Positions 5,627 through 6,674 of a stretch of 7,677 nt of DNA are shown here, piece after piece; the first letter of the stretch is position 1, and each line of letters opens with the position of its first letter. A model generated the notes under the pieces. The model saw nothing but the letters and a program-made list of their open reading frames with translations. It did not search any database and had not been told where the DNA came from. This DNA is from a virus (Monodnaviria > Loebvirae > Hofneiviricota > Faserviricetes > Tubulavirales): the IMG/VR virus record IMGVR_UViG_2675903650_000001; one strand, given 5' to 3'. The translations under genes and the position numbers were made by a program.

Positions 5627-6674
5627 CCGCTCGCCGCAGACCCAGCGACCGAACGTAGTGAGCGAGTGGTCGAGGAAGCGGAAAGGTACCATTACCGGCC
5701 CCGGGCACTTACGCTCTGCTGCCTGCTTCGGGCACTTATGCTCTTTGCTGACATGGTCAACCAGCTTACTGGCTGTGCAGAACCCGACGCGTACAGGCGA
5801 TGGTGTTGCCTGTTGATGAAACTGATGGCTGACAGCGTGCCCCCCTGTAGTGTGCACCGCAGCTTAATCCGTGCTTTGTTTCCATGGACTGCACCTGCCT
5901 GCCGGACTGACAGGTCTGACGGATGAACAGAGAGGCAGAATGCTTCAGTTGCGCGTGTGATGGCACCGCTCGCCGCAGACCCAGCGACCGAACGTAGTGA
6001 GCGAGTGGTCGAGGAAGCGGAAAGGCACCATTACCGGCCTCGGGCACTTACGCTCTGCTGCCTGCTTCGGGCACTTATGCTCTTTGCTGACATGGTCAAC
6101 CAGCTTACTGGCTGTGCAGAACACGACGCGTACAGGCGATGGTGTTGCCTGTTGATGAAACTGATGGCTGACAGCGTGCTCCCCTGTAGTGTGCACCGCA
6201 GCTTAATCCGTGCTTTGTTTCCATGGACTGCACCTGCCTGCCGGACTGGCAGGTCTGACGGATGAACAGAGAGGCAGAATGCTTCAGTTGCGCTTGTGAT
6301 GGCACCGCTCGCCGCAGACCCAGCGACCGAACGTAGTGAGCGAGTGGTCGAGGAAGCGGAAAGGCACCATTACCGGCCCCGGGCACTTATGCTCTTTGCT
6401 GACATGGTCAACCAGCTTACTGGCTGTGCAGAACCCGACGCGTACAGGCGATGATGTTGCCTGTTGATGAAACTGATGGCTGACAGCGTGCTCCCCTGTA
6501 GTGTGCACCGCAGCTTAATCCGCGCTTTGTTTTCATGGACTGCACCTGCCTGCCGGACTGGCAGGTCTGATGGATGAACAGACAGGCAGAATGCTTCATC
6601 TTCGCGTGTGGTGGTACCGCTCGCCGCAGATCCGGCGACCGAACGCAGTGAGCGAGTGATCGAGGAAGCGGAAT
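5627..6674. repeat. Tandem direct repeat array: 339-bp unit, copies at 5627-5965, 5966-6304, 6305-6616 (312 bp, with a 27-bp internal deletion) and partial 6617-~6674
   Basis: The string ccgctcgccgcagacccagcgaccgaacgtagtgagcgagtggtcgaggaagcggaaagg recurs at 5627, 5966 and 6305, with a diverged copy at 6617. Copies 1-3 are near-identical by eye. The array starts 13 bp after the gI stop and ends ~40 bp before the gIV-like start. Confidence 0.9.

Follow-up and report, generated by a model that had tools for sequence, protein, structure and literature searches.

The 7,677-nucleotide stretch of DNA analyzed here (IMG/VR record IMGVR_UViG_2675903650_000001, in the following called the window) is an inovirus segment in which the gap between gI, the gene of the assembly ATPase, and gIV, the gene of the secretin, is filled by an array of long tandem repeats. 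Every unit of this array opens with a 57-nt core that qualifies, as judged from its sequence, strand and predicted structure, as a member of the ColE1 ssiA/n'-pas family of primosome assembly sites, and the array as a whole is probably a complementary-strand origin module that was built on such a site and duplicated by unequal recombination. From the options that a first-pass annotation of the window had offered, an amplified cis-acting element is hence the one we favor. The kind of element, a PriA-type primosome assembly site, is already known and does not amount to a new class of system; what is new is its host context and its tandem arrangement.

Tandem Repeats Finder called a 339-bp period at 5627–6395 (98% matches) and, in a second call, a 312-bp period at 6068–6673, and a repeat finder placed a 57-mer in four in-register copies at 5627, 5966, 6305, and 6617 (spacings of 339, 339, and 312). 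Both agree with the initial description of three units followed by a partial fourth of about 58 bp in the gI–gIV gap. The description of all three as near-identical 339-bp units applies to units 1 and 2 (starting at 5627 and 5966), but not to unit 3 (starting at 6305), which comprises only 312 bp because one copy of an internal 27-bp duplication (GGGCACTTAyGC...) is missing; the partial fourth spans 57 nt. The plus-strand cores lie at 5627–5683 (core 1, the resident copy), 5966–6022 (core 2), 6305–6361 (core 3), and 6617–6673 (terminal core 4), and cores 2 and 3 are 100% identical to core 1, core 4 93%. Each of the first three cores is followed by a body, which measures 282 bp in unit 1 (5684–5965) and unit 2 (6023–6304) and 255 bp in unit 3 (6362–6616), the latter with a 3' end of the "b-type" (...CATCTTCGCGTGTGGTGGTA). 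Units 1 and 2 differ from each other at 6 positions (98.2% identity), which marks unit 2 as the most recent duplication, and unit 3 is about 96% identical to both (about 4% difference).

Repeats of this kind are, as had been surmised, neither iterons nor CRISPR repeats. Iterons are short direct repeats of about 17–22 bp at an origin to which a Rep protein binds, whereas the period here is 339 bp and the sole short internal repeat of the array is the 27-bp duplication absent from unit 3. The 282-bp "spacers" are mutually 92–99% identical, and the window contains no cas genes. Likewise, no conserved open reading frame (ORF) in the units and no integrase were found that would point to an integron cassette array, attC motifs not having been searched explicitly.

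The nature of the core emerged from a comparison of one unit with 72,556 plasmids, which yielded matches in 3,737 records. The whole unit is present in only two of these, both of which harbor integrated inoviruses, and the remaining matches cover solely the first 57–98 nt and are mostly located on small mobilizable plasmids of E. coli, Salmonella, and Klebsiella. Identities of the core to these plasmid copies, which number in the thousands, range from 76 to 100%, and the core behaves as a portable module that is found beside ColE1-type, Rep_3, RepL, and Mob plasmid backbones. In ColE1 itself (NC_001371), the 57-mer aligns to positions 1309–1365 of the plus strand (48/58, 83%), approximately 100 nt downstream of the origin: RNAI was located by Rfam at 645–749 on the minus strand, which places RNA II on the plus strand and the origin near 1200. 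The match accordingly sits on the RNA II-sense strand, that is, the strand that is displaced by leading-strand synthesis and serves as template for the lagging strand. It is this location and this strand at which ssiA (n'-pas) of ColE1 acts as a primosome assembly site for lagging-strand synthesis (PMC3167613). Furthermore, in pUC-type sequences that retain ssiA (L023), the ColE1-derived DNA stops at the end of the 57-mer. The only matches to the unit in a phage collection were three INPHARED records, OX638291.1 (1,949 bp), OR845275.1, and OR850910.1 (5,346 bp), with the core at 84–95% identity; their size and missing annotation suggest small plasmids rather than phages.

A covariance model (R1) that was trained on 11 non-inovirus copies (from ColE1, pBR322-like, Rep_3, RepL, and Mob plasmids) recovered all four cores of the window at 71–73 bits and E-values of about 1e-16, all on the plus strand (core 1: 71.3 bits, E=3.8e-16; core 2: 72.9 bits, E=1.5e-16; core 3: 72.9 bits; core 4: 72.4 bits, E=2e-16), and found no further match elsewhere in the window. 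The cores share with the ColE1 ssiA family the same invariant ends (CCGCTCGCCGCAG...GGAAGCGGAA) and have the same strand sense as the active ColE1 copy. This is also the gene-sense strand of the phage, on which the element is found in all inoviruses examined and which, going by general inovirus biology, should be the packaged strand.

The resemblance extends beyond the core, as a conserved CACTTAyGC follows about 20 nt 3' of it. In the window, the longer form (G)GGCACTTAyGC occurs about 20 nt 3' of each core and is doubled at a distance of 27 nt in the 339-bp units: it is located at 5703–5714 and 5730–5741 in the body of unit 1, at 6042–6053 and 6069–6080 in that of unit 2, at 6381–6392 in that of unit 3 (a single GGGCACTTATGC), and, as GCACTTA, at 6695–6701 in the resident flank downstream of core 4. 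ColE1, pBR322, and many small plasmids have CTTACGC at the equivalent position (about 20–27 nt 3' of the core), and the nearest non-phage copies of the core, on the small plasmids L006–L008, include the motif as well (GGGCACTTACGC). Since the motif keeps the same distance from the core in plasmids with unrelated Rep and Mob systems, GGGCACTTAyGC appears to be part of the ssi module rather than of the body proper, and the matching position of CTTACGC in plasmids raises the possibility that it is an unrecognized part of ssiA, for example a primer start or a PriA contact. An alternative assignment as a MOBQ oriT nick site or a Rep-specific "conserved region" was dropped, because the motif trails ssiA across unrelated replication and mobilization systems and CTTACGC is present in ColE1 and pBR322, too.

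An alignment of 16 distinct core copies supports a consensus hairpin of 15 pairs. In the inner helices, four pairs show changes on both sides (e.g., columns 27/34, A-T versus G-C, 9:7), and 97.9% of the alignment cells are paired, as compared to 29–40% when the partners are slid as a control. The outer helix is invariant, but this carries no information, since its bases were prescribed by the search pattern. In one relative (L022), a whole stem is exchanged for a complementary alternative (GTTTAT...ATAAAC). The core is also more constrained than the body: across the compared units from the two lineages described below, 3/57 sites vary in the core versus 49/282 in the body, which is thus 3–4 times more variable (Fisher p=0.016, with the test run on a 60/279 split).

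Many E. coli chromosomes contain the 57-mer alone at 100% identity. The sole one of these that was examined (L015) carries an inovirus prophage of the window's clade, in which the gI–gIV gap is 120 nt long in all and holds nothing but the 57-mer, with a 13-nt leader before it and a 20-nt spacer and GCACTTACGC after it. Three IMG/VR contigs (L021, L022, and L028) have the same gap layout, two of them with gI proteins of just 86–87% identity, and core 1 of the window is 100% identical to the single core of the array-less relatives L015 and L028. A single ssiA-like element at the gI–gIV junction is therefore the normal state of the clade, from which the array is derived. This also means that the premise behind the first-pass annotation, namely that the gIV–gII intergenic region is the only large non-coding region, fails for this clade. 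No ssi-like element was found, including with R1, when the main intergenic region of L001, the sister prophage, was inspected.

Copy number varies among close relatives. No body is present in L015, L021, L022, and L028; among phages that are about 98.7% identical to the window, L010, L011, and L034 have one full unit and L001, L003, L032, L033, and L035 have two; the window itself has three. A second inovirus lineage (L002, L004, L005, L012, L013, and L036), which is characterized by an IS110-family transposase and traX, has a backbone that is only 68–70% identical to the window but an array that is 88–94% identical. There, the array is preceded by a half-unit that corresponds to the last 176 nt of the body, and two full units (L002) or three (L036) follow. 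A terminal core closes each array in both lineages, and the last unit usually has the ...CATCTTCGCGTGTGGTGGTA 3' end in related arrays of both, an exception being L012 where it is absent. All in all, the body is rare and was detected in 9 of 5,426 complete E. coli genomes.

These relationships allow the history of the array to be traced to some extent. Paralogous units differ by 2–8%, and the presence of such diverged, positionally orthologous units in two lineages implies that an array of at least two units is older than its spread between the lineages. The extra unit of the window, by contrast, is recent. The suggestion of a recently expanded and unstable duplication is therefore only partly correct: it fits the variable copy number among nearly identical phages and the young third unit, but not the two-unit array that the lineages share. 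The single unit of L010 is a recombinant of first-type and last-type units. The terminal core of the window is similar to its second-lineage counterpart in the 5' half and to the resident sequence in the 3' half and the flank, a mixture with which an entry of the body via recombination within cores would fit.

The body gave no Rfam match (the whole window has none at E<=1), alifold detected no compensatory pairs on either of its strands, and single-sequence folds of the array revealed nothing above background, with energies no better than those of shuffled sequence; a structured RNA, as proposed initially, is accordingly not supported. Neither promoter-like sites nor a plus-strand terminator were found in 5300–6900, so that none of the coding, Rfam, alifold, and promoter/terminator tests provides positive evidence for a function of the body beyond spacing. 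Outside the motifs, only a 45-nt segment (5791–5835, GTACAGGC...CTGACAG) has relatives elsewhere. It shows homology to an element from between the genes of other E. coli inoviruses, which is found directly after gIV in one such phage, after the last gene of its RS1-like satellite, and in two F-type plasmids; this post-gIV element has no match among deposited phages. The remainder of the body is specific to the lineage. In plasmids, the body has no match beyond the two inovirus-bearing ones, and a plasmid source was hence rejected. At the nucleotide level, none of the deposited Ff/IKe-type phage genomes matches the unit.

The satellite mentioned above is 3.67 kb long, encodes Rep, SSB, and two ORFs, and is repeated in tandem next to a full inovirus, with three copies or more (L031, 1–9900 and 17058–17300). 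Straight after the last gene or gIV, an element of approximately 225 nt is located (L031; L016, 4001–4214; L017, 4040–4930), which recurs in the half-unit of the second lineage and in non-coding stretches of F-type plasmids, there as a portion of a 473-bp direct repeat. A reading of the 5' part of the half-unit (element "A") or of the post-gIV element as a diverged ssiA was considered and rejected, as local alignments scored no better than z<=2 relative to shuffles and R1 detected nothing there.

The array is very probably non-coding, as had been supposed. The accompanying statement that all six frames hold only short ORFs was somewhat loose, since ORFs of 74–149 aa occur on both strands; none of them, however, is conserved. 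No reading frame is open through all units. In most units, a TGG>TGA change interrupts a 102-aa plus-strand ORF, and unit lengths of 338 and 336 bp occur as well. Variable sites are distributed over the codon phases as 19/20/13, that is, without codon periodicity, and the counts of synonymous versus non-synonymous changes (4–12 versus 23–30 in all six frames) are noise-like. The longest plus-strand ORF has just three near-identical matches among 5.8 billion proteins and no Pfam match. A tandem gene duplication, for which a conserved open frame, an excess of synonymous changes, and homologues elsewhere would be expected, is thus not indicated. In related records, ORFs corresponding to 5603–5926 (plus strand), 5945–6196 (minus strand), and 6284–6508 (minus strand) are annotated as "hypothetical protein" (by PGAP and in a Citrobacter plasmid annotation); these calls across the array are probably spurious.

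From homology, strand, position, and structural conservation, we infer that the element is the complementary-strand origin of the phage. According to this model, which transfers the mechanism established for phiX174 and ColE1 (PMC5778457, PMC3167613) to this phage, the incoming SSB-coated circular plus strand would fold into the hairpin at the element, which would be recognized by PriA; together with PriB and DnaT, DnaB/DnaC would be loaded, and priming by DnaG would then allow the single-stranded DNA to be converted into the double-stranded replicative form (RF) without RNA polymerase. The minus-strand origin of this clade would consequently be situated between gI and gIV instead of in the main intergenic region, commonly in one copy. 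The array could have been born when a 282-bp segment flanked by two cores was installed via recombination within cores, and unequal homologous recombination or slippage between the 339-bp units may later have made it grow and shrink in a range of one to four cores, each copy being a potential primosome loading site. PriA-dependent priming, as well as the activity of every single copy, is predicted here from the kinship with ColE1.

Several points weigh against this explanation or limit its reach. Priming activity in this phage is deduced from homology, and a similar ssi was dispensable for replication in the pHW126-family plasmid pIGRK, so that elements of this type can be accessory (PMC6854812). 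The core does not stand out in folding energy (z=-0.45), nor does ColE1 ssiA itself, and since the aligned ends of the core were set by the search pattern, the covariation evidence comes from the inner helices only. Moreover, the 282-bp body, which makes up 83% of each unit, is not accounted for. In the second lineage, the terminal core is decaying (41–46 bits), which means that not every copy is maintained. Conversely, the retention of a diverged two-unit array in two lineages could reflect selection beyond the priming model.

Such selection might act on dosage: several PriA-loading sites could speed up or secure the establishment of the RF, or the recruitment of PriA could shield the DNA from hairpin-sensing defense such as Lamassu/DdmABC, with copy number as a tunable parameter. 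We regard this as rather unlikely, even though internal cores are identical or nearly so whereas bodies diverge by 2–8%, a two-unit array of positionally orthologous units is common to lineages with about 70% identical backbones, and three-unit versions have arisen independently in both (the window and L036). It was also demonstrated that PriA added to extracts inhibits restriction by DdmABC in a dose-dependent manner (PMC11707656). However, one copy suffices for most relatives, the body is as rare in complete E. coli genomes as stated above, gene conversion among repeats could keep the cores alike without any selection, and no evidence was found that extra copies bring an advantage. An unlikely scenario, too, is that the function resides in the body, which might be a second origin, enhance packaging or assembly, serve gIV as promoter or attenuator, or yield a small RNA, and that the cores merely provide the homology for its recombination and duplication. 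This would agree with the 88–94% conservation of the body between lineages whose genes are about 70% identical, with the half-unit ahead of the first core in the second lineage, which consists solely of the 3' part of the body, and with the location of the homologue of 5791–5835, which directly follows gIV or the last gene on the 3' side in another E. coli inovirus and its satellite, as the place immediately 3' of gIV is that of the packaging signal and the minus origin in Ff. Yet the body lacks a promoter-like site, a plus-strand terminator, an Rfam match, compensatory pairs on either strand, and folding energies better than those of shuffled sequence; it is several times more variable than the core and wholly missing from most relatives, and a recent transfer of the module would explain the high identity between lineages equally well. 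A reading that joins these strands, in which this clade would be the first natural group of filamentous phages to start its complementary strand through the PriA primosome at a plasmid-type ssiA between gI and gIV, in which the array would be a selected, copy-number-tunable amplification (boosting RF formation or providing a PriA shield against hairpin-sensing defense), and in which the body might add a second cis function, strikes us as conceivable but doubtful.

The ssiA-like hairpin could also be a plasmid-derived passenger or serve another plus-strand function such as packaging, with the true minus-strand origin lying elsewhere. In favor of this, the element is portable among plasmids with ColE1-type, Rep_3, RepL, and Mob backbones, and similarity to small plasmids runs into its flanks, which suggests exchange. 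It is nevertheless improbable, given that position and strand are kept in phages whose gI proteins are only 86–87% identical, that stem changes are compensated, that the carrier plasmids do without phage packaging, and that no other ssi-like element was found in the phage. A small protein encoded by each unit (a plus-strand ORF of 102–107 aa or minus-strand ORFs of 74–93 aa) might be suspected from the presence of ORFs of 74–149 aa in every unit, from unit lengths of 339 and 312 that are divisible by 3, and from ORF calls by PGAP and in the Citrobacter plasmid annotation, but it is very improbable in light of the interrupted frame, the units of 338 and 336 bp, the phase and substitution counts, and the near absence of protein matches detailed above; in addition, the ORFs span the ssiA core, a sequence that does not code for protein in ColE1 and that no annotated gene covers in most of the small plasmids inspected. 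Equally improbable is an assembly artefact in the form of a collapsed or expanded repeat. Although the repeats of 339 bp exceed the length of short reads and the exact copy number of the window is that of the assembly, the units differ among themselves at fixed positions and are therefore distinct copies rather than an identical duplication made by an assembler. The same array, with identical architecture, at the same position and with one to three units, is furthermore present in independent assemblies, including complete E. coli genomes, a Citrobacter plasmid, IMG/VR contigs, and metagenome contigs.

Compared with known systems, the window element, read as a complementary-strand origin, is closest to ssiA of ColE1/pBR322 (also known as n'-pas, rriA, or factor Y effector site), with which it shares sequence, a hairpin evidenced by covariation, the sense of the active strand, and CTTACGC. 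It differs in that it lies between gI and gIV of a filamentous phage instead of downstream of a plasmid origin, in that it occurs in one to four tandem copies with a 282-bp body in between, and in that its activity is a predicted one. In its proposed role, the complementary-strand synthesis of a single-stranded DNA phage, it can be likened to the pas of phiX174 in the F–G intergenic region, phiX174 being a microvirus with a single pas. At the latter hairpin, PriA, PriB, and DnaT load DnaB on SSB-coated single-stranded DNA (PMC5778457). In small plasmids of the pHW126/pIGRK type, a palindromic ssi adjoins the replication module (PMC6854812); in contrast to the window array it is single, and loss of the dispensable pIGRK ssi leads to multimerization.

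The minus origin of Ff phages (M13/f1/fd) works differently: hairpins B and C mimic a promoter for sigma-70 RNA polymerase and are located in the gIV–gII intergenic region. Both elements share, if our proposal is correct, the conversion of single strands to RF and activity only on the plus strand in one orientation; the window element, however, is of the primosome type, lies at the gI–gIV junction, and has no promoter-like sites around it (5300–6900) that would correspond to paired hairpins mimicking –35 and –10 boxes. A man-made parallel is provided by assays of Ray, Nomura, Masai, and Arai in the early 1980s, in which M13 lacking its minus origin was reportedly rescued by cloned ssi of ColE1. 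The window clade appears to be the natural equivalent of these M13-ssi laboratory phages, that is, a filamentous phage with complementary-strand synthesis via a ColE1-type ssi in one orientation, but while those were engineered with a single insert, the clade is natural, with a conserved position and a tandem array. In the literature searched, neither a tandem ssi array nor this phage lineage was found to be described. The papers on UPphi, YpfPhi, and CUS-1 deal with IKe-like or gene II/X-type phages rather than gpA-type ones and do not mention such an array in the sections consulted.

The remainder of the window corresponds to an inovirus segment with the order partial gpA-type replication gene (22–1578, PF05840), gIII (2661–4025), gVI (4025–4384), gI/Zot, array, and secretin gene. 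Pfam matches confirm the flanks named in the first-pass annotation: gI to the left (4402–5613, plus strand; Zot-type assembly ATPase, PF05707, E=2.5e-9), counterparts of which are annotated as zonular occludens toxin domain protein in related prophages, and gIV to the right (6712–7677, plus strand; secretin, PF00263, E=5.5e-25). The window as a whole has no nucleotide-level resemblance to any deposited phage genome, deposited inoviruses included, and its gI is at most 35% identical to gI of any deposited phage. Its gIV is shortened by an in-frame internal deletion (about 237 bp or 81 aa, leaving 321 instead of 402 aa) with a junction near 7052–7057, which is seen relative to all relatives examined (L010, L032–L034, and L001), and the phage copy in the window with its shortened gIV may therefore be deficient in virion export. 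In gIII, the linker region (3278–3529) contains Gly/Ser-rich tandem repeats with periods of 15, 30, 39, and 78 nt, as is usual for pIII linkers; their length probably differs from strain to strain.

Further observations concern the genomic surroundings of the relatives. An IS110-family transposase gene lies upstream of the replication gene in L002, L004, L005, and L036 (E. coli chromosomes and a Proteus IncC plasmid) and also in L015. Such IS110-carrying inoviruses occupy many unrelated chromosomal sites (srlD/srlB, yraR/yhbO, gatY, and others), and counts of repeat places suggest about 7–10 copies per genome; place counts of 29, 14, and 5 hint that the copies differ from one another in array length. 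In the IS110-carrying lineage, traX, an F-type pilin acetylase gene, is inserted between gI and the array. Prophages of the window type (L001, 10956–11690; L035) lie beside hipBA in the dif region and, in strain 100416, form a tandem. A CTX-like inverted pair of dif-like XerCD sites encloses a hairpin in the main intergenic region of L001; a repressor-like ORF of 62 aa, which is encoded on the opposite strand, and repeated operator-like TTGCACAATTGCAC sequences follow.

Priming of the second strand via the PriA primosome is a hallmark of phiX174 and of ColE1 plasmids, whereas Ff phages rely on the RNA polymerase of their host. If the proposed role of the array is correct, this inovirus clade would have another host dependency, namely a need for priA, priB, and dnaT, and a conversion to the double-stranded form that is resistant to rifampicin, and it would parallel in nature the classic M13-ssi chimeras. 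Shared by phages and by plasmids of several replication types, the ssiA hairpin has the behavior of a portable module and, in addition, appears to supply the recombination homology by which arrays are built and resized. For annotation, it follows that arrays of this kind attract spurious "hypothetical proteins" and that short-read assemblies may misjudge their copy number. Should the extra copies matter, the array would offer a simple natural system for studying origin dosage in single-stranded DNA replicons.

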